Positions 921-34,000 of a DNA stretch of 64,000 bases are shown here, in pieces (the stretch's first letter is position 1; each line of letters begins with the position of its first letter). Source of the DNA: an uncultured Candidatus Saccharibacteria bacterium (GTDB lineage: Bacteria > Patescibacteriota > Minisyncoccia > Minisyncoccales > Staskawiczbacteraceae). The stretch covers positions 2,115 to 66,114 of the forward strand of contig CAYRHW010000002.1 of assembly GCA_964424305.1 (NCBI GenBank), given 5' to 3'. A program made the position numbers and the translations under genes. The notes beneath the pieces were generated by a model that ran no database searches, was not told the DNA's origin, and saw nothing but the letters and a program-made list of their open reading frames with translations.

Positions 921-947
921 AAAAGCCCCATTACGGGGCTTTTTTTA
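921..947. terminator. bidirectional rho-independent terminator (AGCCCC-AUUAC-GGGGCU + U7)
   Basis: A 6-bp GC hairpin is flanked by an A4 run and a T7 run. It lies between the convergent 548..916 and rpoD genes and overlaps the rpoD stop codon. Confidence 0.7.
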
Positions 948-2138
948 GTAGTAATCTTGTACTTTCTTTAATTCTTCGTGCTTTCTTAATTTCTCTAAAG
1001 CTTTGGCTTGGATCTGCCTAATTCTTTCTCTGGTTACTCCAAATTCTGCCCCAGTTTCTTCTAGGGTATGCATCACGCCATCTCCTAAACCAAACCTCAT
1101 CGCTAAGATTTTTAACTCTCTTGGGCTTAGATCCCCAGATAATTCTTTTAATCTTCTTGTTAAAAGCTTCTGAGCAGCTTCTGTATTCGGCGAAAGAGTT
1201 TTATCGTCTTTTATAAACTCGGCTAAAACACTTTCTTGTTTATCTTTGTCTTCTCCGACTGGGGTTTCTAATGATACTGCTTTTTGAGCAATCTTTCTTA
1301 TATGATGCACCTTATCAACCTCTAGACCCATTTCCGATGCAACTTCCTCCGCCAAAGGCTCTCTCCCCAACTCCTGTAACAGGTTCTTCCTAACTTTAGT
1401 ATATTTGGATATGGTTTCTATCATGTGGACGGGGATCCTAATAGTTCTTGCTTGGTCAGCCAATGCACGAGTAATCGATTGCCTAATCCACCAAGTCGCA
1501 TAGGTAGAAAATTTGTACCCCTTCCTCCAGTCAAACTTCTTTACTGCTTTAAATAACCCCAAATTACCTTCTTGGATAAGATCCAATAAGGTCAAATTTG
1601 GGGATCTGCCAACATATTTTTTTGCTATGGAAACGACTAATCTTAGATTAGATAGCGCTAACCTATTTTTTGCTTCTTCATCCCCATGCTCAATACGCTT
1701 AGCTAGTTCCTTTTCTTCTCTAGCAGTAAGAAAACCAACCCTGCCAATTTCCTTTAAATACATCTGAATGGGATCAATCTTACCCACAAGAACAGCCTTC
1801 TTCTTTTTCTCTTTTTTCCCAGTTTTTGATTTTACTTCTAAAAATTCTTGAGACTCTTTGATTTCGATTCCTCTCTCATTTAAAGTTTCGTAGATTCTTT
1901 CGAGCTCGCTAATATTTTGCTCTATATCTGGGAATGTATATAGAATCTCAGAGGTGGTAATAAACCCTCTTTCGTAACCCTTCTTCAGGATACTGTCCAT
2001 CTGCGCTGGAGTTGCTACCATCTTTCTTGTCCTTGTTATTATCCTTTGCTTCTTAGACTTCCTTTTCTTGATAACTTTCTTTGCCTTCTTGGGTTTTACC
2101 TTTTTGGATACTTTTTTGTTCTTTTTTTGTCTCTTCAT
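945..2138 (-). CDS. rpoD: RNA polymerase primary sigma factor (sigma-70/RpoD) with a lysine-rich N-terminus
   Basis: Region 2 is present ([39 protein letters not shown]). Regions 3 and 4 are present ([15 protein letters not shown]...[22 protein letters not shown]). The gene overlaps dnaG by 4 bp, the classic macromolecular synthesis operon arrangement. Confidence 0.92.
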
Positions 2139-9614: not shown

Positions 9615-11529
<1,915 letters not shown>

Positions 11530-11561
11530 ATTGTTTATATATTAATTAATCTAATAACCAG

Positions 11562-11590
11562 ATTTTATTCTTAATAATGCTAGTTGTCAA
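11562..11590 (-). promoter_or_regulatory. sigma-70-type promoter for groES-groEL (-35 TTGACA, 17 bp, -10 TAAAAT). No CIRCE element seen.
   Basis: On the minus strand, TTGACA is the complement of 11585-11590 and TAAAAT is the complement of 11562-11567. The spacer is 17 bp. Confidence 0.5.
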
Positions 11591-11593
11591 TGT

Positions 11594-11620
11594 AAAAAAA
11601 GAGGCTGGCGGAGACCAACC
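11594..11620 (-). terminator. rho-independent terminator downstream of sigma-like paralog A (GGUUGG-ucuccg-CCAGCC + U7)
   Basis: The hairpin lies immediately after the stop codon. The same stem, with a different loop, occurs after paralog B. Confidence 0.55.
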
Positions 11621-12724
11621 CTAGATTCTTTGCATAGCAGGAAGATTATGACAATCCTCGAAAGCTTTTCTAATCTTGCCTAAAGCACTATCCAAAACTT
11701 GGCGCGCTCGCTCGGTCGAAAATCCGAGTTTTTCACCAAGTTCAGCAAAGGTCATGCCATCCTTAAAACGATGCCCTATTAACAGGCGCTCGTTTTCTGT
11801 TAAATTGGCGCTGGTAACAGCCTCTCCCAAAACTTCAAGACATGTAGCGCACTGTTGGTCCCTTACTTTGTCACGAAAGGCAACAATCTGAGGACTTAGG
11901 GATTCCATATCTTCTGTCGGAACAATTTTGCTCTGACAACGTGCAACTTTCCCCGCATCTCTGTTTATCTGAGATATAATCGCCCTGCAAGCATAGGTCG
12001 AAAACTTGTTCCCCCTGTTTGCCTCGAACTTGTTAATGGCTCTGAAAAGGGCTTCATTTCCGGCCGAAATAGTTTCTTGAATGTCTGTAATCGGGTACTT
12101 GGAATATCCAATCATTGTCATAACAAGCGGCATATTGGCAGCTGCTATGAATTCTCTAATGCGAACCATTCTTTGGAACCAAAAAGTTATTTTCCTGGCT
12201 TGTGCTAGCGGAGGCACTTCACCATTCAAGCCTTTCGTCAAATCAAATAAACGGAATCGGCAATAGTTATAGCCACGAAACATTTCTTGTTCGTGCTTCC
12301 TTACAAATTTTCTTGCCAGCAGATTATCTTCGCTTTGACCGGCGTCATCATCCTCTGGCAAAAACACATATTGAGGGACTGTCCGTTCGTCTAACTCTCG
12401 GAAAAGAGCGGAGACTTCTTTCTCGAATCCGGGCTTTGTAAACAACTTGTCTTTCATTACTTCGACGGGCTCTCTTTTTGCCCGCTGTAGCAAATCAAGC
12501 TCTTCGGCCGTTAACGGACGAGTTTTTCTTTTCCGTTTCGCCCTCGAAAGAAAAACCCTTCTTCCGATACGACGAAGTTCCTCAATCATTCTTAAGCACT
12601 CATCAATTTCCCGCATCAGATAATTGCTCTTTCTTTCCACGGTTATCTCCCTTCCTTGGTTGTCAAAAAGCGGAGTACCCGGACCCCATAGGGTTACCGG
12701 GTCCTTTGGTTTGCATTTTACCAA
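11621..12724 (-). CDS. divergent sigma-70-family protein, paralog A (regions 2 and 4 recognisable, basic N-terminal region). The start codon appears to be TTG.
   Basis: Region 2 is recognisable in LVMTMIGYSKYPITDIQETISAGNEALFRAINKFEANRGNKFSTYACRAI, by comparison with rpoD's [21 protein letters not shown] region-4 HTH is present (LTENERLLIGHRFKDGMTFAELGEKLGFSTERARQVLDSALGKIRKAF). GC content is clearly above its surroundings. Confidence 0.7.
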   Translation of the reverse strand: MVKCKPKDPVTLWGPGTPLFDNQGREITVERKSNYLMREIDECLRMIEELRRIGRRVFLSRAKRKRKTRPLTAEELDLLQRAKREPVEVMKDKLFTKPGFEKEVSALFRELDERTVPQYVFLPEDDDAGQSEDNLLARKFVRKHEQEMFRGYNYCRFRLFDLTKGLNGEVPPLAQARKITFWFQRMVRIREFIAAANMPLVMTMIGYSKYPITDIQETISAGNEALFRAINKFEANRGNKFSTYACRAIISQINRDAGKVARCQSKIVPTEDMESLSPQIVAFRDKVRDQQCATCLEVLGEAVTSANLTENERLLIGHRFKDGMTFAELGEKLGFSTERARQVLDSALGKIRKAFEDCHNLPAMQRI

Positions 12725-12742
12725 AACCCAAAAGTTAAAATA

Positions 12743-12771
12743 ATAATATTATTAAAACACAGCAATGTCAA
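12743..12771 (-). promoter_or_regulatory. putative sigma-70-type promoter for paralog A (-35 TTGACA, 17 bp, -10 TATTAT)
   Basis: A perfect -35 and a good -10 lie directly downstream of the paralog B terminator. The -10 is only about 19 nt from the annotated TTG start, so the true start may lie further in. Confidence 0.4.
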
Positions 12772-12776
12772 AAGTG

Positions 12777-12804
12777 TAAAAAAAGAGGCTGGCATCGAAC
12801 CAAC
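12777..12804 (-). terminator. rho-independent terminator downstream of sigma-like paralog B (GGUUGG-uucgaug-CCAGCC + U7)
   Basis: This is the second copy of the conserved AAAAAAAGAGGCTGGC..GAACCAACCCT element, seen on the plus strand. Confidence 0.55.
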
Positions 12805-12811
12805 CCTATTC

Positions 12812-13792
12812 TCACGTTTTATGTCCTTTTTTATTTTCAACTTTCACGGTAAGACCATAATACCTTTTCAAAACTTCTGCTATGCTAGAAAAAGCAATGC
12901 TTAATATGTATCGCACACCTTCTTTAGTACACCCGATTTTTTTAGCTATCGCGGCAAGATCCCTTTCTTGGCATCCAAATCCAAAACGGAGCTTAACCGC
13001 CATTTTTTGTTGAGCAGATAAGCCGGCGTGCGTATCTATTATTTCTCTCATGTGTTCCAGAAGAGACTCCAGTCTTTGATCACGTATAGCATCAACAGAT
13101 CCTGCCGCGATAAAATCTAGGACGTCATCATCGCCCGCTGGTCTGTATCTTGCTAACTGTCGCTGCTCTTTGGCGCGATAAGAACCAATCCTGTGCAATA
13201 TCGCCCTGCATGCATAAGTAGAAAATTTAAATCCCCGAGTCACATCGAACTTATCAATTGCGCTAAGAAGAGCTTGGTTCCCGTTGGAAACAGCCACAGG
13301 AATTTCCGGAAGCTTCATTCCCCTGACCTTAGAAACCATTTTCTTCACCAACTGCTGATGAACATTGAAAAGGAATTCTCGCATTCTGCGCAATAGATTA
13401 AACCAGTTGATTATTTCTCTGGTCTTCTCGGTCGGAATCTGTTGGCCGTTAACTCCTTCCATGAGTTTGGCCATACGATACCGACAGTAGTTAAGACCCA
13501 AGAAAAATTCTATTTCGTTGGCTATCGCAAAAACTCTGGCCTCAACGTCTTTCGGGCTTTGTTCTTGGCTTATTTCGCTAAAAAGGGACGCACCTGGCAT
13601 TGGTTGATGTTCAAAAATTCCCAAAAACCTCAAAAACTCTTCGTGGAATCCGGGATCATCAAACTTTTCGCTAATCATATATTCCAGCGGCTCTTTCCTG
13701 GCTGACTTAAACATTTTGGCCTCGCGGGCAGTTATTTTTTTGACCTTGCGTTTGCCTCCCCGTCGGGAGGACGCATCGCTTTTCTTCGCCAT
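12812..13792 (-). CDS. divergent sigma-70-family protein, paralog B
   Basis: Region 2 is recognisable (KFDVTRGFKFSTYACRAILHRI). A region-4 HTH is present (LSAQQKMAVKLRFGFGCQERDLAAIAKKIGCTKEGVRYILSIA). The N-terminal half aligns with paralog A (AKREPVEVMKDKLFTKPGFEKE vs ARKEPLEYMISEKFDDPGFHEE; YNYCRFRL vs LNYCRYRM). The gene is GC-richer than its flanks. Confidence 0.7.
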   Translation of the reverse strand: MAKKSDASSRRGGKRKVKKITAREAKMFKSARKEPLEYMISEKFDDPGFHEEFLRFLGIFEHQPMPGASLFSEISQEQSPKDVEARVFAIANEIEFFLGLNYCRYRMAKLMEGVNGQQIPTEKTREIINWFNLLRRMREFLFNVHQQLVKKMVSKVRGMKLPEIPVAVSNGNQALLSAIDKFDVTRGFKFSTYACRAILHRIGSYRAKEQRQLARYRPAGDDDVLDFIAAGSVDAIRDQRLESLLEHMREIIDTHAGLSAQQKMAVKLRFGFGCQERDLAAIAKKIGCTKEGVRYILSIAFSSIAEVLKRYYGLTVKVENKKGHKT

Positions 13793-13851
13793 GGCTTGCC
13801 TCCCTTCTTTGTTTGTAAAAGAACTTTAGCCCGTTTACGGGCAATTTGTTT

Positions 13852-16665
13852 TTAAATCTCTTCTTTCAAAAACTTTCCTGTATGACTTTTGGAAGACTTA
13901 GCAATATCCTTTGGGGTACCCTCTGCTACAATTTCACCCCCTCCTTCCCCGCCCTCTGGTCCCATATCTATAACCCAATCGGAGTTTTTTATAAAATCAA
14001 CATTGTGCTCAACAGCAATTACTGTATTTCCCTTAGCTACTAATTCTTTTAGCACAAACAACAATCTTTTAACATCGTCAGGATGCAAACCAGTTGTTGG
14101 TTCATCTAAAATATACAAAGTCTTCCCGGTTGTCTTGCGAGACAGCTCAGTAGCTAGTTTTACCCTCTGGGCCTCGCCTCCAGAAAGAGAAGGAGCTGGC
14201 TGGCCAATCTCCATATATGGGAGTCCGACTTCTTTTAGAGTTTTGAATTTAGAATAAAGCCCGGGAATGTTCTTAAAGAATTCGGCACCTTCTTCAATGG
14301 TCATATCCAACACTTCGGCAATATTCTTTCCCTTATATTCAATCGATAAAACCTCTTTATTATATCTCTGCCCCCGACACTCCGGGCATTCGACATAGAT
14401 ATCTGGCAAGAAATACATTTCCACCCTATTTTGCCCTTGGCCCTCGCAAGCCTCGCATCTGCCACCCTTAACATTAAAAGAAAACCTTCCCGCGCCGTAA
14501 CCCCTAATCTTAGCTTCTTTGGTACGAGTGAAAATATCTCGGATGTAGGCAAAGGCACCGGTATAGGTGGCGGGATTTGATCTTGGGGTTCTACCGATAG
14601 CCGATTGATCTACCAAGACCACCTTGTTCAAATGTTCAATCCCTTTTATCTCCCCGTGTTTACCCGGTTCATCCTTTGCCCGGTAAAATCTTTTTAACAA
14701 AGACTTGGCTAAAATGTCATCAACCAAGGAAGATTTTCCGGAGCCAGAGACACCGGTGACACAGATAAACTTCCCTAAAGGGAAATTTACATCAATATTT
14801 TTTAAATTATGCTCCTGGGCCCCCTTGATTACTAGGTATTCTTGTTTCCCATTCTCCTTCTTTCTCAATGTTGGCGAATTAACCTGTTTTTTACCCGATA
14901 AATACTCACCCGTTAATGTATGAGATTTTAAAAGTTGAGCTGGGGTACCTTTAAATATGACCTTGCCACCGTGCTTACCTGCACCGGGCCCAATGTCCAC
15001 AACCCAATCGGCCGAAAGAATTGTTTGAGGATCGTGCTCACAGAGAATTACTGTATTACCTAGATCCCTTAATTTCTTCAATGTTTCAATCAGCTTATGT
15101 TGATCTCTAGGGTGAAGTCCAATTGACGGTTCGTCTAAGATGTATAGAACCCCGGATAGTCTAGATCCAATTTGAGTGGCTAATCTTATCCTCTGCTCCT
15201 CTCCACCAGCCAGAGTTAGAGCTTTTCTGCCCAAGGCTAAATAGCCCAGACCAACATCGATTAGGAATTCGATGCGATTAATAATTTCTTTGATGATTGG
15301 CTGGGCGATTCTAAGATCAGCGCTGCTAATACTTTTGTGGCCAACAAGATGATCAAAAAATTCTTTTGTATTTGAAACCGGCATTTCTGAAATCTGATTG
15401 ATAGATTTTTCTCCCACGGTTACTGCCAGAACTTCCGGCTTCAATCTTTTCCCCAAACAAGATGGGCACTCTTTAATAACCATGTACTGCTCAATCTCCT
15501 GGCGGGTCCAATCCGAATCCGTTTCGTGATACCTTCTTTCTAAATTTGGCATTACTCCCTCAAAACCCAAACCATCACCATGCAAAATTACCTTAACTAT
15601 CTTGGGATCTAAATTTTTAAATTCCTCATCCAAAGAAAACTTATATTTTTCAGCTAATTCCGATAGCCTAACCCAGTAGTAGCTTTGCCTGCCCACCTTA
15701 TGGGAAGCTCGCATCCATGGCCAGATAGCGCCCTCGGCGATAGTTAGATTTTTATTGGGAATTACTAAATCCGGATCAACCTCCAATTTCTCCCCAAGAC
15801 CAGTACACTCGGAACAGGCCCCGTAGGGGTTGTTAAAGGAAAACAATCTCGGTTCTAATTCTGACAAAGAAACACCGCACTCTTCGCAGGCGAAATGCTT
15901 AGAGAAAACTAAATCTTTACTTTCCTTATTCCCTTTGATTTTTTGACTCACAACCAACATGCCCCTTCCCAACTTCAAACCAGTCTCAACGGAATCTGTT
16001 ATCCTTATTCTATCTGGACTCTTATCTAAAACTAATCTATCAATCACTACTTCGATGTTGTGTTTTTTATTCTTATCTAAAGCTTTCTCTACCACCTCTT
16101 CCATTTTGTAAACTATTCCATCCAATCTCAATCTAACAAACCCGCCCCTTTGGGCCTCTTCTATCAAGCCATGGTGCTCTCCCTTCTTACCGCGAGCAAT
16201 GGGACCCAGGATGATAATCTCTGAACCTTTTTCTAAATTTAAAATCTGATCAACAATTTGATCCACAGTAACCTTACTGATGGGTTTTTTACATTTTGGA
16301 CAATGAGGTTTACCAACTCTTGCAAATAAAAGACGGAGGTAGTCATAGATCTCTGTAATGGTGCCGACAGTGGATCTTGGATTATGGGAACCTTTTCTTT
16401 GATCAATGGAGATGGCGGGCGAGATGCCCTCTATTTTATCTACGTCGGGTTTATCCATCACACCCAAAAACTGCCGCGCATAGGCTGACAAACTTTCGAC
16501 ATACCTTCTCTGCCCTTCGGCGTATAGGGTATCAAACGCTAAAGAAGATTTTCCAGAACCAGATAGACCAGTAAAAACAACCAACTTATTCTTGGGAATG
16601 TCTAAATCGATGTTTTTTAGATTATGAACCCGCGCACCCCTAATTTTTATGAAATTATCGGCCAT
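13852..16665 (-). CDS. uvrA: excinuclease ABC subunit A
   Basis: There are two ABC ATPase modules ([20 protein letters not shown]) and Cys4 zinc fingers. Length is 937 aa. Confidence 0.95.
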
Positions 16666-17549: not shown

Positions 17550-20500
17550 CTATGGGGTATTTTTACCCTTTTTATTAATTAATTCCCTAATCCTGTCTCG
17601 GTAAAAATTAATCGCAAGTAAAATAACGATGACCAGGATAATACCGGCCTTCCAGTCAAAATATCTGAGCAACCAGAAACTCTTTTCTAGCCCAATGTTC
17701 TGATGAATTTCATTTCCCCAAACAACCTCAATGCTTTCCCCCCTGTAGGGGCTATAACCCTTGGCCTCAACCAATAATTGATATGTTCCCTGTGGCGCCA
17801 AGAAGGCGTAACGACCAGTATCGTCGGTGATTTGGGGGTTTATCTGCTGATAATTCTTAGCTGGCCATAATTCATATTCTCTAGTTTCTGGATTTAACCA
17901 GAACAACGATGCCTTAGCACCCTCAATTCTCATTTTTCCTTGGCTTGTTTGGTAATAGATGTAACCTTCTGGGTCAATAACAGTTACTAACTTTAATTCT
18001 TTCGGAAGCAACTTAATATTATTATATTCCATAACACTTATTATCTCGTACTCTCCGTCAACAACGGGCATTGATACATTCGCCGTCCAAATTCCATCGC
18101 CATCAGCGTCTTCGTAATAGAACTCTTTAACAACAAGGGCCTGCTCTAGATTCTCTCCTCCGTCGGTTAACGCTGGAGACAGCAAAGAAGCAGCTGTTTT
18201 TTTAAGAATACTTTCCGTTGTTTCCTTCTTCCCTTTCTGCTTAAATATTAAATAACCTTTAATAGTTTTTACGGATCCCTCCGGCTTAATAATCAGCTGA
18301 ACATCCTTCCCAGCCATAACGCTTACTTTTTGCTGAATTTCTCCCTGGTCGCCCATGGTAATCGAAGTCTCCTTATCAACTGTTCCACTGCCACTTCTGA
18401 CAAATAGAATGTCTGTTGGTACCCTCTCTTTTAATTGCAGGGTGAGATGATCTAGAGAGACTCCTTGGGGAAGAGTGAAGTCTTTGGGATCCACTAATGG
18501 ACTACCGAGCCCACTTAACCGAACATTCTGCTCAATGGCCTGAGAAAGTCCAGACAAAGATAAACTATTGCCATATAGCTTCTCCACATCAGTTATCTTT
18601 GTTATCCCAATTTCCGTCAAAGCTTTGTCTAACTGCGGAAACTTCCCAGCCAAAACTCTTAATTCTTTTGGTAGGGGTTGCAAAACAAACCTTTCAATTG
18701 ATTTTGTCGGCATTGTATCCCAAATGTTAGACAAAGCATCGGGTGCTTTTTGAGGAACCACTTCCTCTACTGGGGGCTGGGGCGGTATCGGTGGCTCTAT
18801 GGGTGTTATGGGTGGAGTCGGAGGATTAATAATATCAATTATTGGAGTAAGAATATTCGGTATCCGGTAATTAATGGTGGCGGTTATTGTGTCAGATGAA
18901 ACCCCGTAGGTAGTAAAGAATTTAACATAAACAGTCTTTTGGCCCTGGCCATCAGATAATCTCCATTGCTTTGTAATTGCGTAGGATTCTTGTATCGCAT
19001 TGGTGAAATTAGGATCATTGGACACAGACATTCTAAATGTATCAGAGCTACCCCTAAGGGTAAGAGCAACATCCTGGGTGTTAGTAGTCATGGCCCCATT
19101 ATTTATCTGGACCAGGAATCCTGTTAAAGGAGCTGATGGAGGAAGGTAGGCTCCGACCGGGAGACTTCCTCCCCCAGGACAGCCAGCGGTTGTGACTGAA
19201 GAGGTAGACATTGCTGTTTCTGCGCCACCATTCTTCGCCTTAACTGTGAACGTGTAAGAAGTATTGCAAACCAAACCAGAGGAAATCCATGTGGTTGTTG
19301 TTATCCATCCAGAGTTAGTAGAGTCAGTTGTATTTTCGCCATAATATTCGGTGCCCGTTGGGTTAGAATACGCTGTCCAAGTTACTGTGATCTGACTAGC
19401 AGAATCGGCCACCAAAGAAAGAGTAGGTGGAGTAACATCAATATTAATGTCATAGGCTGAGGCCGTTGTTGCAGAGTTCCCGGCAACATCTTCTCCATAT
19501 AGACAGATATACTTCGTATTGTTATCTACGGTGGTCTGATTTATTGAATCAGAATCAGTTTTAGAATAACTTCCGGCAGAAACAGGACAAACTCCATCAG
19601 CATCATATTCCCACTTCTTTACTGAGGCATCCCCCCAACTGCCTGTGACAGTATCTGAAATAACAGGACCCGCTGCAACGTTGTTAGAGAAAGAAAGAGT
19701 TGGACCAGTAGTATCAATAACCAAAGCCTTATTAGCACCCAAAGAATTAGTAGATCCCGGCGAAGCTAGCGTTAATATGGCATTATTCCCCACCGCATCT
19801 TTAATGGTGCCACCGTTGAGAACCAGGGCTGTTGTTGAAGTATAATCAAGGTCAGTAGAGGCGTTACCGGAAGCCACCGTGTAATTAAACGTAATCGTAT
19901 TTGTACCCGAGCCAGATAAATAATCTACTGCTGTGGTCGACGGGCTTGAAGTTGATAAAATTAATTGAGGGATCCCGCTGACAATAACATCTTCACTGAA
20001 ACTTACCTGGACTGGAACTATTTGGTTAATCGTGTAGTTACCATTATCAAGGGGAGATGTGACCCCGGAAACAGTGGGAGCAGTGTTATCCAAAACTGCA
20101 GACACTGTTGTAACAGAACTTGGATTTCCGACCGGGTCTATTGCCTGAACGTGGATATAGTATGTGCCGTTTCCCGAAGATTGAGTTACGGTGATAGTGG
20201 AATCATAGCTTCCCGAAGGCGAACTTCCTATAGTTTGGTCAACTAAATAACGGAAAGTGGCGGTGCCGTCGCTTGAACTCCATGTCCATGTCTTGCTCTT
20301 TGCCGGCGTACTATCATCACTAAGTCCGGTGATATTCGGAGCAGTGTTATCAACTGTAAATGCCGTGCTTGGTCCTGCACCAAGAGAAGTGTTCCCGGCG
20401 TTGTCTGAAGCAGTGGCAGCTGCAATTGAAATACCAAGGGTGCCGTCTCCGGTAATGGAAGATATGGTAACCGTTCTTGTTGCTGTTCCAGAACCAGAAA

Positions 20501-23500
20501 CAGCAACACTTCCGTCTGCGCTTCCGGTTTTATTTAAGGTTACATTCCCTGCCACCAAACTAATCGAATCTGCTCCGCCATAAGTTATCGTATAAGTAAT
20601 TGGACCTGTGTTGGTTAAACTTGCCGATGGGGCACCGATTGAATTTGTCGGCGCGGTGATATCGTATAAAATATTATTTGCGCTATAGTAAGCCGTGGAA
20701 TTATTTGCCACGTCTTTGCATTCCAGTTTCATACAATAGTAATGGCCGTCTGTTCCGATAAAACTTGCCGAATGAGTCGTGCTCCATGTTGTTATAATTG
20801 TGTAAGATTTTCCACTGCAACCGGTGCCCGGCGAAGTTCCGACATCTGAATAAGAAATCTGATATGGCGCGGCGTTCAATCCAGAGCCCGAGTCAGTACA
20901 GGTTCCAACATTTGCAATATCAACCGTGGGAGCCGAATTGTCATAAATCAAAGTCGCAGGACTCACGCCCGGAGGACTTACCAAACTCGGCGGAGTGGTA
21001 TCAAAATCCCAATTTGTGTTACTTCCTGGCACTAAATCCGTACAGCCCGACGGAATAATGTGATTTGTTTTTGCATAAGAATAAGAAACAATTGCGTTAG
21101 TTACGGTCGTGGACGCCGGCGCCAAAATATACCAGGTTACAGCCGCAGAACTTGGAGCCAAAGTAATATTATTTGTTCCTGCTCCACCGGAAATATTTAA
21201 AGTTGTAGAAATCGTGTGCGGAGAAGCAAGCGATGCAGCAGCAAATTTTAATGTACTTGCATTTGTAATATCATTCAAAATTGCTGTCTGCAATTGGTCA
21301 GCAAAAGTCACTCCGCCCGATGAAGCATTTGTTACGGTTAAAATATTAAAAAGTTGTCCATTGGATGTGATATTCTGCGTGCCCGTACCATTGAATGTGA
21401 CGGCGGATGTACCCGGAGTAATACCAATTTTGGTCGTATCCCAGTCGCCCTTTATAGATATATTCGTGGCGCCGAGATTGGCTGTATTAATGGTGTTGTC
21501 ACCATATACGGCGGAGAAACTGCCGTTAATGGTTATTGCGGGCGTCCCGGTTGAGAGGTCCAGTTTACCAATATCAGTGCCGGTACCCGAAGCTAATTTC
21601 AGATTGTTCACAGTTAACGAGTTGCCTCCGGTATTTAAGGTCATCGGTGATATGCTTCCTTGAGAATTCCAATAACCCACATAAAGATCTCCGGCTAAAT
21701 TCCAATTCCCTGTCATTGTTATGGTTTTCGCGGTTGCCCCATATGACTGGAAATATACCCTGCCTGTGCCATCCCTTGTTAGTGCAGGAAGATTCACATT
21801 TGCCGATGGCGTTATCAACAAACCCGCGTTACCTTTCAGTGTTGTCGCAATATTTACAAAATTATCAACCCCACCAGTTAAATTTGTGGCGTTATCCAAG
21901 GTCAGCGTCGCGCCACTAACGGTTAAAGTACCCACACCAGAGGTTCCTACGTTAAGAGTCGTAGTAGTTGTGTAGGTGCCCGATCCAGTTATACTAAGAT
22001 TTATAAAATTATTGTTCGCGCCTGGGGATAAATTGCCGGTCCCCGTAAGATATACGGTACCGCTCGTTGGTGTGAACGTGCCAGCGCTCGAATCCCAGTT
22101 GCCGCTGGCTGTAATTTTAGAATTGCCCGAGCACGTGACTGTACCGCCCGTGCCAATTGTCATGTCTGCTGTTGTCCAACCGTTGACTGCCGAGGTGCCA
22201 ATGGTTACTGTTCCGCCGGTGACGGTTGAGTTACCAGTAACAGCTAAATCTTTATTTCCAATTGCAAGAGTGCCTCCACTGGCAGTTAAGCTTCCGCCCA
22301 CTGATATGTTAGCTGAGCCGGCGATGGCGGTTCCATTTGAATTAATAAGATTGCCGGCCGCGGAAAGAGAATTTGTGGATTCTGCGCCAATAGATTTTAC
22401 AAAGTGCCCGCTTCCCATGGTCTGGTCGGACTGGTTATTGTATTCGGTCAAAACCCAACCGGTTGAACGGGCGGTGGTTGAAACACGGAACTCATCAAGG
22501 ATACCATTTAAAAATCCGTTGCCTCCACCTACAGCAGCGCCGTATCGTCCTACATAGAATGTTTGAGACGAATCCGATCCTGATGTCCCAACTCCGGTAT
22601 TGGCGCTACTTACAGCCTGAGAAACTCCGTTAACATATATTGTCATTGTTGGATTAATAGAATGCGTATCTCCCTCTATAACAACATATGACCACGCACC
22701 GGTTGAAGGGGCCGTGATCTGCTTTCTTGCGTTCGTAGTTGCTCGCTCAGTAGTAAATCGCAAAAGTGGCCCCGTTTCAAATGAAATCCACCATCCAGGG
22801 CTCACTGTATTGCCATCATTCCTGGCAGCGATAGTCCCAGAAGTATTCGTAGTTGGGTTTATCCAAAAAGACCACGCAACAGATCCACTGCCGCTAGTAT
22901 TAACTAAGTCAGCAATTGACGAGCCTGTCCCCATGTTAATATATTGTGAACTTGACGAAACAAAATTGCCCCCGCCGTCGATTTCTCCTGGTGTAGCTGT
23001 GGCGCCGCTGACAGTTCCGTTGTTTACACCCAAAGAATCATTTGCTGTTAATGATGTGCCGTTTGGTAAATGATAAACTGCGGTATACCCATTACTCCAC
23101 ACCCCGGTTGCATTCTGCTGGCTGGCGCAAGTGGGGTTTCCGTAGTTCATATATAGCGTGGTGTCAGCGGTAGATGAAAGAGTTGGCACCTTCACCCATA
23201 CATATGCTGTGTCGCTTGACCCGCCCCTAGAATAATATTCAATTTCGTGAGTCAGTCTTGTTCCGCTGGCATCCATAAATACTAAATCCTGGCCCGCTGA
23301 TTGGGCGTGCGCGTAAAGGTCGGCGTCGCCGTTTATATATAGAAGGACGGGGAAGTTTGTCTGGTCGCTTGATACTTTGGTGTAGTCAATGGTGACGGCT
23401 TTCTTATAAGCCCAGCTGTAAAGCGTGCTACTGCCCGAGTGAGTAAAGTTATTAAAAGAACTTGAGCCAAGAGAAACGTCTTGCGTGCCAGACCCATTAA

Positions 23501-26500
23501 AGTCAACTGTGCCCGAGTTGTGTGTAAATGTTCCGCCAGCTTGCAACCAATTTCCGCCAACTGATAAAGTTCCCGAGCAAGAAGTTAAAGTGCCTGCAGA
23601 TATGGCTACGTTTCCCGATACAGTAACGTTTGTGCCTTGAAGAGCCCATGCTCCGCCCGTGCCGTTGATGGCAATGTTATTAAATGTACTGCCACCCGTG
23701 GTAATTGTTTTTCCGCTGGCTGTTCCGTTAAAGGTGACTGTTCCGGTTTCTGGAACGAATGTTCCTGAGTTTGACCAGTTTCCGCCAACTGTAATTGCGC
23801 ACGCGGCTCCACTGCAGTTTGCAGGCGAAACATCTAGCGTTCCTGCTGTAATTATTAAGTCATTAGTTACGTTTAATGCGGCTCCCAAAGTAAATGTTCC
23901 TTGAGTGTTAAGCGTTAAGCTGCCTAATGTTAAAGCTCCTGCGGTGCTTCCGCCCCCGCTGGCATTGTTGTTTGTAATTGTTGTTGCGGCTCCCGTGACC
24001 GTGACTAACGTGATATCTCCGCCAGCGGTGTAAGTGTTGCCCAATCCATTGTCTAACCGTATATCAACTGTTCCTGCGCCAGCGTTTAATGTGGTGCCTC
24101 CAGCCATTGTGATTACTGCTGTTCCAGAACTCCTGTTGGCATCAACCACTCCTGTTGATGCTTTTTCGTTGGCGTAGAGTGCAAGGTTGCCATCATCGGT
24201 GGTTATATTTGCGTTAATTAGAATACTTCTTCCGGCTTGCAGGGTTAAGTTGCCCCCGTTGCCTGATCCATTACTGGCCGTAACTGCGCTACTAATTGTA
24301 ATATCATTGTTGGCTTGCAATACAACGTTGCTGCCAGTGTTTAATGTTGTGGTTAGAAATGCTGGGGTTAATGTATATGTTGCAGTTGGGTCGTAAGCGA
24401 AGGTGTAACTGCTCGGGGCAGAGGCAAATGTGTTAGAAGAGACGGAATAGACTTTTTGAGCAGTAGCTTGATAGAAAGAAACAATCGTATGGTTATTAAC
24501 TACATAATCTCTTGGAACGGCCATGCTGGCACTCGCCGTAGGGCCGATAATACTATTACTACTAGAAATTGCGCCCGCACAACCCGTAGTGCCACTGCAC
24601 AGTGTAACTTCACCTGCATTTACTGTGGCTCCATTATCCCAATTAGCATTATAAACAACATAGTTTCCATTACTGAGACCTACAGACGAGGCCGCGCCAT
24701 CACTGGTCGTTGTTCCATAAAGCGAGTTAGAACTAGAAACTATTCCGGTAGTACCAGTTGTACCATTAATAAATGTGGTGGCACCAACGTCTGTTGCTGG
24801 TGAATTATCCCAACCTCCGCTACAATTTACAAAGTTTCCATTGGCAAGAGCCAGAACGCGGGGGCTGGAGCTACCACTAGCTACAGCGCCTATAGCATCA
24901 TTCGCAGTTGCTCCATAAATAGAATTAGAAGTTGAAACTGCTTGGCCGTTGCAACTATTTGTTGTGCCATTGCACCAGACTAATGCTCCAACATTAGCGG
25001 TGGCTCCGTTGTCCCAAAACGGACTACTTACCATATAATTTCCATTAACCAAAAGAGGGGTTATATATAAACCACCATTAGCACTACCTCCCACTTGGTC
25101 ACTAGTTGTTGTTCCGTAAAGCGAATTAGAGGTTGAAACAACGCCAATGCATCCAGTTGTACCACTGCACCAGGTAACAGCTCCAGCATCTACGGTTGCA
25201 CCATTATTCCATCCTGGCATCGCTACCACATAATTGCCGTTAGTCAATGGATTAACTTGTGAGCCGGAGGCGTCGCTGGCGGTGCTCCCGTAAAGCGAAT
25301 TAGAAGTAGTTACTGAGCCGGGAGTACAACCAGTCTCGCCGTTACACAAAACAACCGCTCCAATGTCTGCCTTTCCCCCGTTGTCCCAATATGGACTACC
25401 AGTAATATAATTTCCATTAGATAGGGCCTTAATAAAATATCCAATTTGATCGCTTGTTGTGGTTCCATACAAAGAATTAGAAATGGAAACTGCTTGACCA
25501 TTGCAACTACCAGTTGCGCCATTACACCAGGTTGTTGCGCCCACATCAACAGTGGCTCCGTTGTTCCAACTATAATTAGCAACCACATAATTACCATTGG
25601 TAAGAAGAGCGGGAGGGAGACTACCAACATTATCATTAATTTGCGTGCCATAAAGCGAATTAGAAGTTGAAACCGCGCCGAAGCATCCAGTTGCACCACT
25701 ACACCAAGTAATAGCCCCAGCATTAGTCGCTGCTCCATTATCCCAATTATAGCTACTAACCACATAATTCCCATTAGTTAACGTTTTAAGAACCGCCCCT
25801 ACATTATCATTTGCGGCAGAACCGACAAGCGAATTAGAAGCAGAAACCGGCTGGCCGGCGCAACTATTTGTGGTTCCATTACACCAGGTGACAGCCCCGG
25901 CGTTAGCTACAGATCCGTTGTCCCAAATCGTTGAACTAATTGCATAATTACCATTACCTACCTCAATAACAGCAAACGTCTGCCCCTGGCCTATCCTATC
26001 GCTCGCCGTTGTTCCATAAAGTGAATTAGATGTATTCATTGTTTGGCCGGCACAGTTGTTTGTTGCGCCGTTGCACAAAATAGCACCTCCGGCATCCACC
26101 ACAGCTCCATTATCCCAATTCCAATCGCTCACAACGTAATTACCATTAGATAAAGCCAAAAACATGGTTGGCATAGAAATAGAGCCCATTTGGTCACTAT
26201 TAGTAGAGCCAACAAGAGAATTAGAAGTAGAAACCGTACCCGAGCAACCAGCTGTGCCGCTGCACCAGGTTACTGCACCAGCGTCTGTCACGGCTCCATT
26301 GTCCCAAGTTGAACTTCTAATAACATAATTCCCATTAGTTAGGGAAGAAATACTATTCGAACCAACCTGGTCGCTTGCAGTTGTACCGGTTATTGTAGAA
26401 ATTAAAGCGCCCGTTTCTCCATTAAATAAATAAACAGCTCCTGCATTACTTGCTACAAGGTCGTCGCCATAGTCCGCTACTGGCACATTCCCATTAGTAA

Positions 26501-29500
26501 TTGGCACAGCAGCAAGAGCAATTGTGGAAGACACGTTTAAAAAATTATAACCAATCTGCTGACCGTATGTTCCTGTATCCGGATTCGGGTCCACCAGCTC
26601 AAAGTAATACATGGATCCCGACGGCGCTTGGCCAGACGAAGAAATAGTAATATTCTTAGGATCAAAAAGAATTGTACCCGCTGCTCCTTTTTCTGAAGAC
26701 GCGTCGGTTTTGGCGTCCGGGGAAATAGATAAGTCTCCACTTGAAGATATTTCAATTGTTCCACCTGCTGCATCTGTGCTCTTTGCGTTGGCTAATCCAT
26801 CAAACTTTGTTGATTTATCAGACCAAACAACAATGGTTCCACCATTTCCCGTATTTCCATTTGCTTTTAATGTAGTGGTTGGAGAAATAACAGTTTCGTG
26901 AGATTGAACCATTGAACCTTGCCCGTGCATGTCACCTCCAATCTTGATTGTTCCGCCCTGGTTCTCTCCCGAAGCATTTAACTTAGAGCCGAATAGTTTA
27001 ATAAAGATTGCAGCTTCAAGGGTGATGTTGCCTCCGTTGTCTCCAGAAACGTCATACTTGCCAGATGCAAAGATGTGGCTAGCGAATCCTTTGCTTCCAT
27101 TTAAATAGATTGTATTTCCCGAAACAATACTGCTTTCGCTGTCGATGTATGCACCGCTAAAATTTAAATTGACACCCCACGCTGAAATTGTCCCCTGCTG
27201 TAGGATGTTTCTTGAGCTGATGTTGACTTGGCCGGCCGAGCAATTAGCGTCAGCGTCGAGCATAACTACGCCAGAGCTTAGGTTGATTCGCCCACCGTTG
27301 CTGCTCAATTCTCCAATAATTTCAATGCGTCCCGAGGAGTTTTCGTTGTCTTCTGAGTTTAAAGAAATGTCGCTGGTAGAATCAATGGAAGAGTTGGATA
27401 CAATAGAGTTGCCGGCGGTGATGATTAAAGAAGCGTCGTCTCCGCTGGTTTTAGCAATTGGATCGTTTAGGGTGATGTCGCCTTCTGCTTTCAGGGTGAC
27501 TGCTTTGCCTGAGTTTAGTGCCGAGTTGATATCGTCAACGTTAACGTTGCCTCCGCCAGATCCAGCTTCCCAGCCAGGAGCCTCACCGGCATTTGTTGTC
27601 GGGTCGCTACTCACAGTAAGGTTGTTTGACGGAACAGAAACGTAGTCGAAAGAGATATCACCTGAGATTTTTAAATAGAATGTTGTAGCTGGCTGAGAAA
27701 GATTGGACAGCGGAATACTATAAGAGCCCTCCTGATCAATGTTGTTTAAATTGGCAATCCATTGATTTCCATCCTGAGTGTAAACATCTATCGAATCAGA
27801 TTGTCCGTCGTAAGCGGGCTTAGTATATATATTGATAACTCCCGTGGCGTCTAGCTCCTTGCTGAAAGTGAGTTTAATATATTTGTTGTTTTCAATGGTT
27901 ATCCATTTTCCGTCTTGGATTTTTACAGAGTCATAAATATCTTCTGTAATAGTTTTGTCTTCATCAAGCTTAAATGCCTTAGAGGTGAATACGATCTTAA
28001 ATGTTTGACTGCTAGACAGGGCGGAAATCGTCCACTCTAGGTAATCTAATTTTCCGTTGTCGTCATTGTCATAGGCCTTGAAGTCAACAGCAGTATCTGT
28101 GTTGTCTGGGTTCTGTAGTTTGACTTGTATTTTGCTTTCCTGACCAACGTCGTATATCTCCGGAATGTTAGTATGGGCAACGACGTCTGTGAACAAAACT
28201 TGTTTGGCTAAGCAATCTTGGTATGCAGCTTCTTCGTCAGTCAAGGCTTCGGTGGGCGCGGTCTCCGGTTCAGTTGAGGGCGGCGTGAGCACAGAAGCAT
28301 CTGACTGACTTGTGGTATCTTGGGTAATTGTTGGTGTTTCGGTGACAGATGGTTGTTCTGTTGGGGCCGATGTCTCAGCCGGTGCGATAATTGTCTCAAC
28401 TATTTGGCTAATTGCTTGTTCTAAATCTGCAAACAAATACCTGTTTATCGTGGATAAAATATTTGACACCGCATTTGCTAGGCTGGCTATGCTGTTTTTG
28501 AAGACAAAAGAAATAGGACTGTTGCTCTTATTTGCCGGGTTTAATGATTCGCAATCAATCCCTTCTGTATTTAATGAGGAAACGGTGACCATCTTACCCG
28601 TGTCTGTTGTTTCTTGTTTTAAAATTGGGGCTGGTGTTTCGTAGGTGACTTCAACAACGTCTGTGGTTGATATTTCCGGTGCCAGTGGTATTGCCGGGGT
28701 TTCTTCCGGAGCTGACGGAACTTCTACAGCAGGAGGCGCCTCTGTTGATGTGGTTTCCGGTGCCGATATGATCTCAGTTAGCGCAGGGGCAACTTCTTCT
28801 ACCGTTGGAGTGGTTGCTTCCTCCGGGATCTGACTGGACAAATCAACCACCTTTGAGTCATCTGCGGTTGATATTTCCGGTTGAGTTATTGTTTCAATAA
28901 TTTGGCCAACACCGTCTCCTACACTGGAAAGGAAAAACTTGCTGAGGCCGGATAAAAGACTGCCGAGAAAAAAATTGGATTGTTTTGAGGCTGCAGATAG
29001 TTGTTTGCGTTCTTTTGAAGAGAGCTGCTGGGTGTTCTTTACGTTGGCCTGGGCCACAAGTGCATCAGCTTGCTGCCTAGAGATAGTTTTTATCTTGATG
29101 TTCTTTGCATTTTTGGGAAGTTTTAGCAGATACTGGGTTTTTGTGAGGTCACTTTTGTTAATCAAGATAGCTCTCTTGATGGGTTGGCCCTGGGCTACCA
29201 CTAAGATAGTCTCTGTTATCTTGGTCTGGTTGGCTTTAATAAATGCTGTCTGGTCTATCTTTGGCTTTGAAAGATTGATAAATGCAACTGTAGCAGATAA
29301 CAAAAGAAAGACCGAGAGGGCGGCATAGGAAGAGATGAGAATGATTTTCCTTTTTCGCTGTTCAAATTCCCTTAGGAGCTCGGGATTAATAAAGCTAGGA
29401 GAGGCTGATCTATTCTTTTTCTTTTTGAAAAATAGGGATTTAATAAAATGCTGGCTTTTAATAAACCCTTTCCCAAGAGAAACAAAAACACCCTTTAGTT

Positions 29501-31068: not shown

Positions 31069-34000
31069 TTAATTAGTTGCTGTAATTATTCTTTTTTGCA
31101 TTCTGTCACGATAAAAGATGTAACCAGAAAAAATGAACATTAATATAATAACTAAAATTTTCCAATCAAAATATTTCACAAACCAATTGCTACTCTTAAG
31201 CTCGATATTTTCATGCACCCCAACCCCATTTTTAACCTCAAATTCTTCGCCCCTATAGGACGTGTAACCACGAGCCTCCACGGTTATATAATAACTCCCT
31301 TCCGGGACCAAGAAAGAATACTTACCAGTAACATCGGTTACTTGTGGGTTTGTTTGTTGATATTTCTTTGCTGGCCAAATCTCGTAGACTTTTGTCTCAG
31401 GGTTCATCCAGTATAGGGTGACCCTGCTATCTCTAATTCTTATCTGTCCTTCTGGCTTTTGGTAATAAATATAACCCTCTGGATCAACAACGACGATTAG
31501 GCTTGTTTGAGTTGATTTTATCTTTCTATCTTGATAATCAATGACCGTTGTAATTTCATAGTCCCCATCAACGGCTGGAGCAATTATATCTGCTATCCAA
31601 ATCCCATCTTTGTCTAGATCTAAATAATCAAACTCTTGTAAAACTAATCTATCTCCGTTATTGGCCACTTCCTCTTTGGGACTCCCCAGCAAAGAGGCAG
31701 TAATCAAATTTGAATCGCCCCCGTTCAAAGACACTGAATTTCTTTGCTTAACAAGGAAATAACCGGTTACCGCCCTTGCTTGCTTCTCTGGCTTAACAAT
31801 TAGTTGTAGCCCCTTATTTGAAATAACATCTATTTTCTGCTGTGGTTCACCCTCTTGGCTGATAGAAACATTGATATTTTGGTCAATTAGCCCGCCACCA
31901 GTTCTGGCGAAAACAATTTCAGTGGGTATTTTCATCTTTGCGCCATTGGTTAGATCGCCGATAGAAACTCCCGCTGGAGCAAATCCACCCGTACCCATAC
32001 TGGCTCCGGGCAAACTTACCATTTCCGCTAACCCGGGCAACACAAAGTTATTCCCCAACAATTTACTGACATCTGATGCCCTAGAGACACCTATCTCTCT
32101 AAACGCCGAATCCAACTGAGGTATCTTCTGAGAAAGGACGCTTAACTCTCTCGGCATCGGCCCCAGAATAAAGGTCTCAACATTCCCCACCGACAAAACA
32201 TCTATTTGTTTCCTAAATACAAATGGTGTTTCTTTCGTGACAACCTCCTCTATCGGAGGACTCTCTACGCTTGGTACCTGACCCGAACCTATTATTCCTC
32301 CTATCCCTTCCACCACCTTACCGATACCATTAACAATTTGCCCCGGCAGCTTAGTTATACCCTCGGCCACATTGCCGGTTGACTCAATCACCTCTCGGAC
32401 AATTGTTTTCTTCCCGAGATATATTGAATCAGAGTATGCCTCCGATGACTGACCGTAGGAAGTAAAGAATTTAACATAAACAGTTTTATCTCCATTTCCT
32501 TCTGGCAATACCCAGCGAACAATATCTTGATATGGTTGCTGAACTGCGTTTGTAAACTCTGGATTATTAGATATGGCCATTCGCTCAACGTCTGAGCCTG
32601 CTTTCAACAAAAGGACGACTTCTGGATTTTCTGTAATAGAGTCGTTGTTATTTATAAAAACTGAGAATCCCCCAGCAGGAATAACCGGCGCCACATAGGC
32701 ACCAGAAGGTAATCCACTACCACCACACCCCTTTGTATCTATGGTGGCTACATCGGTAAAACTAGTTTCTGCATCATTTCCATTTCTTGCTTTAACTCTA
32801 AAGGCATAATTGGTATCACAGGTTAAGCCAGAAGAAGACCAGAACAAAGATGTTACCCAACCAGAATTTGTATTGTTACTAGTGTTTTCGATATAGTATT
32901 GAGTGCCCGACGGGTTTGAATTGGCTGTCCAAGTGGCTGTAATTTGACTAAGAGAATCAGCGCTTAAGGTAAGGGAGGAAGGAATATTAGCTAAGGTGTA
33001 TTTAGAGGAAGGAAGAGAGTAGGCAGATACATTACCCATCACGTCTCTTGCCTGCACACGATAGGCGTATATTGTTCCTGGGTTAAGTGGCGTATCCACC
33101 AAAGTATTTGAAGCTTGCCATCCTAATTCAGTAGTATCTCTCTTAAATTGATAGGCGGCAGTAGCGTGAAGACCAGACTCTGAATCAGTGGCTGTATTAG
33201 CCACCACAGTTATGCCAGTTGTTGTGTCGGCTGTAGTTGAAGAAATCCCAATGTTGGTAGGTGGGGTTACATCCCCATAGTTAATATCTGCGTTACAAGT
33301 TTCATCAAAACTACAGAATATATCAAGGGCACAATCGGCGGTTACTGTACAAGCAGCACCTATGCCCCCACAAATATTATCGGTACCACAAAAGTGGCTA
33401 CCGCAATCGTTATTGGTGGTGCAGGAGCCACCAAGGGCCACAGCCTGAGTGGTTGCAGATAAGGTGCTGGAATAATTAGAGATGTTTCCTGTTGCATCTT
33501 TGGCTCTGACTTCGTATGTATATTGAGTGTTTGGAGTTAAGCCTGAATCTACATGTGTTGTTGAGGATTGCCAACCAGATGAAGTTGCTCCTGGGTTGCC
33601 AGTAGTTTCTTGGAATTGATATGGGCTGGCATCTAATCCTGAGCCACTGTTATCTGTTGCTGTTCCGCTAACAACTGTAATTTGAGTTGATGAGTTGGCC
33701 GTTGCAGAAGATAGCGCAACGGTCGGAGGGGTAAATACCCAATTTAGGTTGTTGCCACTACTGGTGAAATAGCTTCCTGTGATTTGCTTGCCGACACCAA
33801 CCAATGCATCAGAATCTTTAACATCAACATAGCTCACGGCTAGAGTTGCAGTTGGATCAACGCTCAACTTCCATTGGGTCGGAGTAGAATTTGATCTTAA
33901 GCTTAACAAATTTCCTGCAATTCCATTCAGAGTAATGGTTCCACCTGCAGCGATTGATGTTGTGGATCCGGAAGCGAAGGTTAGGGTGCGTGCAGTGGTG

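Follow-up and report, generated by a model that had tools for sequence, protein, structure and literature searches.

The stretch of DNA studied here (the window) comprises 64,000 nucleotides of contig CAYRHW010000002.1 from an uncultured Candidatus Saccharibacteria bacterium of the GTDB family Staskawiczbacteraceae, and it carries two tandem genes, A and B, between uvrA and the groES-groEL operon. Both genes encode proteins of the sigma-70 family, and each is followed by a hairpin of the same design and then by a TTGACA box. The parts of the locus are given below in window positions, with the two genes and their signals first. ORF denotes an open reading frame, SD a Shine-Dalgarno sequence and HMM a hidden Markov model.

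12812-13792, minus strand: sigma paralog B, the upstream copy, 326 residues (ORF; Pfam and NCBIfam; AlphaFold2; Foldseek; family HMM)
11621-12640, minus strand: sigma paralog A, the downstream copy, 339 residues from GTG 12640 (raw ORF 11621-12724, from a TTG)
13793..13826, minus strand: translation-initiation region of B, read directly from the sequence, with a T-run, ACAAAC and the SD GAAGGGAGG (13807..13799)
12766..12809, minus strand: 3' module copy 1, TAGGGTTGGT-loop-GCCAGCCTCTTTTTTTACA-CTT-TTGACA, comprising the predicted intrinsic terminator of B, a T-tract and the -35 box of the next promoter
12771..12743, minus strand: promoter-like site for A, TTGACA-17-TATTAT, an 11/12 match in the promoter scan
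12641..12736, minus strand: leader of A, around 96 nucleotides, with a hairpin (12702..12677) then U5, the 8-mer TTGACAAC (12666..12659) and the SD GGAAGGGAG (12655..12647)
11585..11624, minus strand: 3' module copy 2, TAGGGTTGGT-loop-GCCAGCCTCTTTTTTTACA-TTGACA, comprising the predicted terminator of A, with the TAG stop of A at the module start, fused to the groES -35 box
11590..11562, minus strand: native groES promoter, TTGACA-17-TAAAAT, an 11/12 match in the promoter scan, with no CIRCE (the HrcA-repressor operator) here
13829..13842, minus strand: weak hairpin just past the uvrA stop, GCCCG-uaaa-CGGGC, with a 5-bp stem (-9.1 kcal/mol) and a short, displaced U run after it
13852-16665, minus strand: uvrA, an ORF of 937 residues and the native left flank of the putative insertion; UvrA Pfam domains were found on the identical gene in locus L031
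16715..16687, minus strand: promoter-like site of uvrA, TTGATA-17-TATAAT, from the promoter scan
11242-11529, minus strand: groES, first gene of the groES-groEL operon (9615..11529) and native right flank
9615-11249, minus strand: groEL, second gene of the groES-groEL operon
945-2138, minus strand: rpoD, primary sigma factor of the genome (regions 1.1, 1.2, 2, 3 and 4), downstream of dnaG

A sequence-only reading of this DNA had proposed that A and B are paralogous extra sigma factors with signatures of sigma-70 regions 2 and 4 and with N-terminal halves unrelated to RpoD. The two proteins share 33% identity across 307 residues (E=1e-49), a likeness that extends into their N-terminal halves, and KFSTYACRAI is present in both. 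Profile searches gave matches to Pfam Sigma70_r2 (PF04542; cut-off 24 bits) of 24.4 bits for A and 29.1 bits for B, and to TIGR02937 (cut-off 42.9 bits) of 57.3 and 45.8 bits, respectively. For Pfam Sigma70_r4 (PF04545; cut-off 24.1 bits) A passed with 41 bits and B fell just short with 20.3 bits. The paralogy and both signatures were thus borne out, whereas the statement about the N-terminal halves held only in part. An hhalign alignment with host RpoD starts only at around residue 135 of B; a profile made from an alignment of 54 family members, A and B among them, nevertheless aligns to region 1.2 of mycobacterial SigA from around position 72.

This family profile matches the solved chains of SigA, RpoD, RpoS and SigB with E-values of around 1e-33 to 1e-38. 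Its positions 72-228 align to residues 154-309 of the mycobacterial SigA, which span regions 1.2 and 2 together with the non-conserved region. Region 4 of SigA (395-460) is matched by positions 255-324 of the profile, and around 86 residues of region 3 are skipped between the two segments. The same region-3 gap is seen in the hhalign comparison with host RpoD, in which region 4 is aligned. The AlphaFold2 model of B (mean predicted local distance difference test score, pLDDT, 85) is all-helical, with one long helix (residues 222-254) joining sigma2 to a three-helix sigma4, and a Foldseek search with this model placed the mycobacterial SigA and SigB on top. Scores against the family HMM, whose source alignment included A and B, were 291 bits for A and 298 bits for B as compared to 100 bits for host RpoD. 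In both proteins every column without variation among the 54 aligned members is retained (29/29), which suggests purifying selection and that A and B are functional.

Collectively these data show that A and B are sigma-70-family factors, for which binding to core RNA polymerase is predicted. Their architecture, 1.2-2-4, is that of a family-specific N-terminal extension, a region-1.2-like helix, sigma2, a linker of around 27 residues replacing sigma3, and a sigma4 helix-turn-helix. They are alternative rather than primary sigma factors, since the true rpoD lies at 945-2138, and this is the only sigma-70-family ORF in the window besides A and B; the extra sigma factors of the sequence-only reading are therefore present. 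The KFSTYACR of sigma2 is invariant in the family, and Arg-Ala stands where primary sigma factors carry a Trp pair (W433/W434 of E. coli). Regions 2.3-2.4 read FSTYACRAIL in A and B, differing from the primary-sigma sequence, and given the loss of the Trp pair the -10 element that they recognise is probably unlike the housekeeping one. In the region 4.2 helix the family consensus TKERVRQIQ is close to the TRERIRQIQ of RpoD, with STERARQVL in A and TKEGVRYIL in B. The residues of the primary-sigma -35 recognition helix (E, R, R, Q) are all kept in A and two of them are changed in B. As the recognition helices of the two proteins have diverged, A and B probably read different -35 boxes.

Membership of the established groups was considered and rejected. 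For group 1 (RpoD/SigA) no Sigma70_r1_1 or Sigma70_r3 match was found in either protein, and the RpoD_Cterm scores were 48-52 bits against a cut-off of 354. The heat-shock factor RpoH (sigma-32) gave 49 bits against 315 with PRK07500 and 38 against 323 with TIGR02392, and it is linked to A and B only by the proximity of groESL. Both proteins score far beneath all the equivalog cut-offs for RpoD, RpoS, RpoH, FliA and the sporulation sigma factors. Membership of the extracytoplasmic function (ECF, group 4) sigma factors is contradicted by a Sigma70_r4_2 score of 13.5 bits against 25.7, by the 130-residue N-terminal extension and by the nearest solved relatives, which belong to groups 1/2. The anti-phage sigma factor MzaA of the MZA system was matched at 43-44 bits against a cut-off of 800, with the match confined to the region-2 segment. 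None of the locus ORFs adjoining A or B encodes an anti-sigma factor.

The synteny of the locus was examined in 80 loci obtained by a UvrA scan of metagenome contigs (UvrA 55-77% identical). The order uvrA-groES-groEL is kept in 38 of these (UvrA 60-75% identical), many of which continue from groEL to a zinc-ribbon gene, lemA and an M48 peptidase gene, just as the window does. No more than 66-230 bp separate uvrA from groES in around 22 of the 38 loci, where the groES promoter begins right past the uvrA stop, and in around 16 the gap holds 0.5-2.8 kb of unrelated cargo, namely hypothetical proteins, an HTH_17 plus receiver-domain protein (L037) or a LAGLIDADG/HTH protein (L055). A homolog of A or B was found in the gap in 0/38 syntenic loci, and neither the insert nor its flanks carry an integrase, transposase, replication or structural gene. 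These data support the view that the segment from around 11585 to 13851 is a lineage-specific insertion in the uvrA-groES slot, putatively of foreign origin, in agreement with the foreign insertion within a housekeeping neighbourhood that had been proposed from the letters of the sequence.

As a separate observation, the uvrA-groES slot is a hotspot of lineage-specific cargo in Staskawiczbacteria-like genomes.

The relatives of the host and those of A and B lie in different phyla. For host RpoB over 100 relatives were found at 82-89% identity, and wherever one of them bears an organism name it is Candidatus Staskawiczbacteria or Patescibacteria. The best non-self matches among 5.8 billion proteins were 30% identical for B and 42% identical over 65% of the length for A, and the organism names on the A/B matches are Phycisphaerae or Planctomycetes, bar one Rhodospirillales. 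This difference between RpoB and the sigma proteins argues for a foreign origin of the latter. The family comprises at least 150 clusters at 50% identity, each scoring more than 277 bits, and A and B rank within the top 150 family representatives. Examples from Phycisphaerae/Planctomycetota are P0128 (Phycisphaerales bacterium AB-hyl4, GCA_041821185.1), P0018, P0045 and P0057, all uncharacterised. The four family contexts inspected each show a single chromosomal gene amid housekeeping or free-living-type genes. A scan of genome contigs with protein B alone returned distant region-2 matches only, in unrelated phyla, and our full-text literature search turned up no work on this sigma family and none on the transfer of sigma factors into the Candidate Phyla Radiation (CPR).

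In two Planctomycetota-type contig families the sigma homolog divergently adjoins a gene for Fe/Mn superoxide dismutase (L177 6714-8930, L178 6714-8930 and L179 6928-8990). This adjacency may hint at a role of the family in oxidative stress.

We then considered the signals around the two genes. The stem GGTTGG-loop-CCAGCC occurs twice in the 64 kb, with 0.01 occurrences expected, and each copy stands directly 3' of a sigma stop codon with T7 next. Both hairpins were called terminator-like, with 8-pair stems then U7, folding energies of -16.9 and -11.3 kcal/mol and z-scores of -4.8 and -2.3, and we regard them as predicted intrinsic (Rho-independent) terminators. The sequence-only reading had placed the same terminator after each gene, within a conserved element of about 35 bp. 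Both points stand, and the shared 3' element measures around 44 bp, with 37/38 positions identical excluding the hairpin loop. Both G.U wobble pairs of the stem are kept in the two modules and the loop alone differs. Translation of A stops at the TAG of the module, and in B this TAG lies in frame two codons past the TGA, which indicates that the 3' ends of A and B are homologous. The module was found in two copies in the window, in none of the IMG/VR viral contigs and in none of 176 other loci, relatives' included, save for one chance stem match. With so few copies, a dispersed repeat or miniature inverted-repeat transposable element was rejected; so was an integron cassette with an attC site, as the stem-loop has only 20 nucleotides, GTTGGT misfits GTTRRRY and there is no integrase.

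A TTGACA -35 box follows each terminator, as had been noted before, and both are part of the 11/12 promoter matches listed above. An exact TTGACA is found upstream of groES in 36/38 relatives, which identifies the TTGACA after A as the native groES promoter, again as proposed. Each promoter is that of the gene downstream of it and not of the cassette that precedes it. The A promoter and the groES promoter have the T-tract and the -35 box in common, and the TTGACA after B seems to derive from the groES promoter, as a copy captured in a tandem duplication. The promoter scan gave no sigma-70-type site for B. The hairpin after uvrA is weak and its U run short and displaced, so that it is probably a leaky terminator through which B can be reached from uvrA.

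The start of A is most likely GTG 12640, given that its SD, GGAAGGGAG, is homologous to the GAAGGGAGG of B and that two independent gene calls, from two assemblies, use this codon and give 339 residues. A longer protein of 367 residues from a TTG (the NCBI call, P0122) was rejected on the strength of this SD. The leader of A contains a 17-codon mini-ORF from ATG 12716, and its hairpin at 12702..12677 is homologous by position to the one after uvrA. A regulatory leader or RNA thermometer was rejected, as the fold z-score is only -1.7, which is not distinctive, and no Rfam family matches.

A and B were sisters in all 100 bootstraps of a neighbour-joining tree (the method used for all trees, each with 100 bootstraps), in 98/100 after Dayhoff-6 recoding and in 100/100 with viral sequences added. 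The 35 nucleotides before the two start codons are around 75% identical, comprising a T-run, ACAA[A/C]C and the SD GAAGGGAG, and a hairpin stands ahead of each. A duplication of the translation-initiation region, gene and terminator as one unit is supported by these similarities. The duplicated promoter-sigma-terminator cassette of the sequence-only reading is therefore right as to the 5' region, gene and terminator, which are shared, but needs correcting as to the promoters, which belong to the downstream genes, with no promoter-like site for B itself. At fourfold-degenerate sites of identical A/B residues the agreement is 26%, which is that expected by chance (saturated), and the duplication is thus old in neutral terms. 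The near-identity of the two modules could reflect constraint at the sequence level, gene conversion or a recombination junction. The last of these is prompted by the 8-mer TTGACAAC, which brackets A plus its terminator (12666..12659 and 11590..11583). The direct repeats, i.e. the 44-bp module and the 8-mer, are equally explicable by a tandem duplication of functional signals.

Base composition gave a different picture from the visibly GC-rich insertion described in the sequence-only reading. The GC content of the segment is 0.433, where the window averages 0.413 +/- 0.025, and 24% of windows of the same size reach or exceed this value (76th percentile). Its tetranucleotide distance is at the 78th percentile, with 22% of windows as deviant or more. 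Codon-usage distances of 0.122 for A and 0.181 for B lie within the host-gene range (0.056-0.251), and the GC content at third codon positions, 0.42, is host-like. A compositional island was rejected, all three tests being negative.

The explanation that we favour, with a probability of around 0.7, is that the segment from around 11585 to 13851 is a lineage-specific insertion in a Staskawiczbacteria-like genome, carrying two functional alternative sigma factors that were acquired horizontally and then tandemly duplicated. On this account one sigma gene, with its SD region and intrinsic terminator, would have been inserted downstream of the uvrA stop codon and upstream of the groES -35 box, long enough ago for its base composition to match that of the host. 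A unit comprising the upstream hairpin, SD, gene, terminator, T-tract and groES -35/-10 would then have been duplicated in tandem, which would have placed a second, captured groES promoter in front of the downstream gene, A. As judged by the anatomy of the locus, transcription from the uvrA promoter would read through the weak hairpin into B, A would be transcribed from its own housekeeping-type promoter, with the T-tract and -35 box that it has in common with groESL, and the strong one-directional terminator of each gene would insulate the next unit. A and B might compete with RpoD for core RNA polymerase and steer it to promoters with a non-housekeeping -10 element.

Several points weigh against this account. 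There is no compositional sign of foreignness in GC, tetranucleotides or codon usage, so that the case for horizontal transfer is carried by phyletic pattern and synteny only. The nearest sampled relatives are distant (UvrA at most 77% identical), and the best of them, L033, ends right after uvrA. The trees are of the neighbour-joining type with long branches, the position of A+B within the family is unstable, which leaves the donor ambiguous, and their nearest neighbour includes a viral-contig sequence in 45/100 bootstraps. A plain tandem duplication leaves the 37/38 identity of the modules beside 26% identity at fourfold sites unexplained, and the Pfam Sigma70_r4 score of B is under the cut-off.

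The viral-contig neighbour bears on the alternative that the segment is the remnant of a mobile element (phage, plasmid or integrative) that brought its own sigma factors, the 44-bp module or TTGACAAC marking recombination junctions. This we consider unlikely. Family-like proteins with KFSTYACR and no sigma3 are encoded on IMG/VR contigs (L116-L120 and L155); they are shorter, score 127-182 bits against the family HMM and in L120 lie near a tyrosine integrase and a DNA methylase. They are however only 23-31% identical to A and B, no nearer than the chromosomal Phycisphaerae genes, and the contigs may be cellular, since the neighbours in L116 (GC 0.40) are RtcB, the CCA-adding enzyme and DnaJ. 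PHROG 351 (phage sigma factor) is matched at 1e-17 to 1e-18, but this match is to a generic sigma fold. The flanking of A plus its terminator by the 8-mer, that of the whole of A by the 44-bp module, and the varied cargo that the slot accepts in relatives, a LAGLIDADG-type gene included, would also fit such an element; the module is nevertheless absent from the viral contigs and there are no mobility, replication or structural genes in the insert or its flanks. In tblastn searches of 50,697 phage records (GenBank) and 72,556 plasmid records (PLSDB) B found no match and A found one, a region-2 match of 19% coverage. The phage- or plasmid-like origin put forward in the sequence-only reading thus has no support and is kept as a minor alternative only, the tblastn searches, the module search of viral contigs and the PHROG and PADLOC matches having been empty or generic.

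A second alternative is that the pair is native, having been present at this position in an ancestor of the CPR clade and repeatedly lost, with the likeness to Phycisphaerae proteins reflecting ancient common descent. The host-like composition and codon usage, the promoters and SDs of host type, a variable slot that makes losses plausible and the deep divergence of A and B, whose saturated synonymous sites imply long residence somewhere, are all consistent with this. Against it, 0/38 syntenic loci carry the pair, nothing among the 5.8 billion sequences is more than 42% identical despite hundreds of close Staskawiczbacteria RpoB proteins, and the named family members are all Planctomycetota save one labelled Rhodospirillales. 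We regard common descent at this position as improbable.

A bolder proposal would treat the KFSTYACR proteins as a distinct sigma-70 class, with a group-1-like sigma2 and region 1.2, no sigma3 and no Trp pair, that may be carried from one phylum to another, perhaps by integrative or viral elements. Here the pair would be wired into the control of groESL through the shared and unusually conserved module, as a small sigma cascade replacing the CIRCE/HrcA heat-shock control of most relatives. A CIRCE-like operator, TTAGCACTC-N9-GAGTGCTAA with at most 5 mismatches, does lie between the TTGACA promoter and groES in 23/38 relatives, and there is none anywhere in the 64-kb window. Together with the T-tract and -35 box that A has in common with groESL, this absence makes a link to heat shock tempting. 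The operator is also missing in 15/38 relatives, which are free of the insertion, and this indicates that its absence has no specific association with the insertion; a tie between the insertion and the loss of CIRCE was rejected for this reason. The proposal as a whole is improbable.

An assembly chimera, in which a Planctomycetota DNA fragment was misjoined into a CPR contig, is suggested by the metagenomic source and by relatives of A and B in another phylum, but is extremely improbable, as two further assemblies (three in total, from different assemblers) contain the locus and its junctions with 100% identity, both junctions are intergenic in DNA that carries the native groES promoter, GC (0.433) and codon usage are host-like and A and B are only around 30% identical to any Planctomycetota protein.

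Bacteria of the CPR/Patescibacteria have very small genomes and few known transcription regulators. If horizontal acquisition followed by tandem duplication is the correct explanation, horizontal transfer can widen the transcription programme of even such tiny genomes, with a foreign alternative sigma factor being taken up, kept and duplicated. The locus would also provide a clean natural example of promoter capture through tandem duplication, and it draws attention to a large unstudied sigma family without region 3 and without the Trp pair. Current concepts are unchanged by it. The acquisition of extra sigma genes is an ordinary kind of event, and the result is a useful annotation.

Two further features of the window lie outside the locus. 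At 168-388 on the minus strand, downstream of rpoD, lies a group I catalytic intron that matches Rfam RF00028 over the whole model with 78 bits, and ARAGORN finds no tRNA at this site. Two giant ORFs on the minus strand, 17550-29528 and 31069-41145, encode 3992 and 3358 residues with an unusually high GC content at codon position 2 (0.48-0.50), and no other part of the window deviates as much in composition.

Compared with known systems, the uvrA-groES segment resembles genomic islets in its conserved flanks, the variable content of the slot and cargo with relatives in another phylum. It differs from them in that mobility genes, a tRNA target and a deviating composition are all absent and in that the cargo is tandemly duplicated along with a promoter of the neighbouring gene. 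Among sigma factors, RpoD/SigA, RpoS and the mycobacterial SigB are the top matches to A and B in sequence and fold, and regions 1.2, 2.1-2.4 and 4.1-4.2 align. Unlike these factors of groups 1/2, A and B are without region 1.1, sigma3 and the region 3.2 finger, with around 86 residues of SigA reduced to around 27, and the Trp-Trp of region 2.3 is replaced by Arg-Ala. ECF sigma factors share the sigma2-linker-sigma4 arrangement without sigma3, and the cut-off that A and B pass in TIGR02937 is that of the 'sigma70-ECF' superfamily, but A and B have around 130 extra N-terminal residues, including the region-1.2-like helix, and are closer to groups 1/2 in PDB searches. The sigma-70 family proteins of around 330 residues from Phycisphaerae/Planctomycetota show full-length homology to A and B (85-93% query coverage) and the same architecture, and the 29 invariant residues, including NY..R, GN.ALL and KFD..RG.KFSTYACR, are kept in both. 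These proteins differ from A and B in sequence (27-34% identity) and in the sigma4 recognition helix, which has diverged in A and in B, and they are singletons in the four contexts inspected, whereas A and B form a tandem pair in a CPR genome of around 41% GC.

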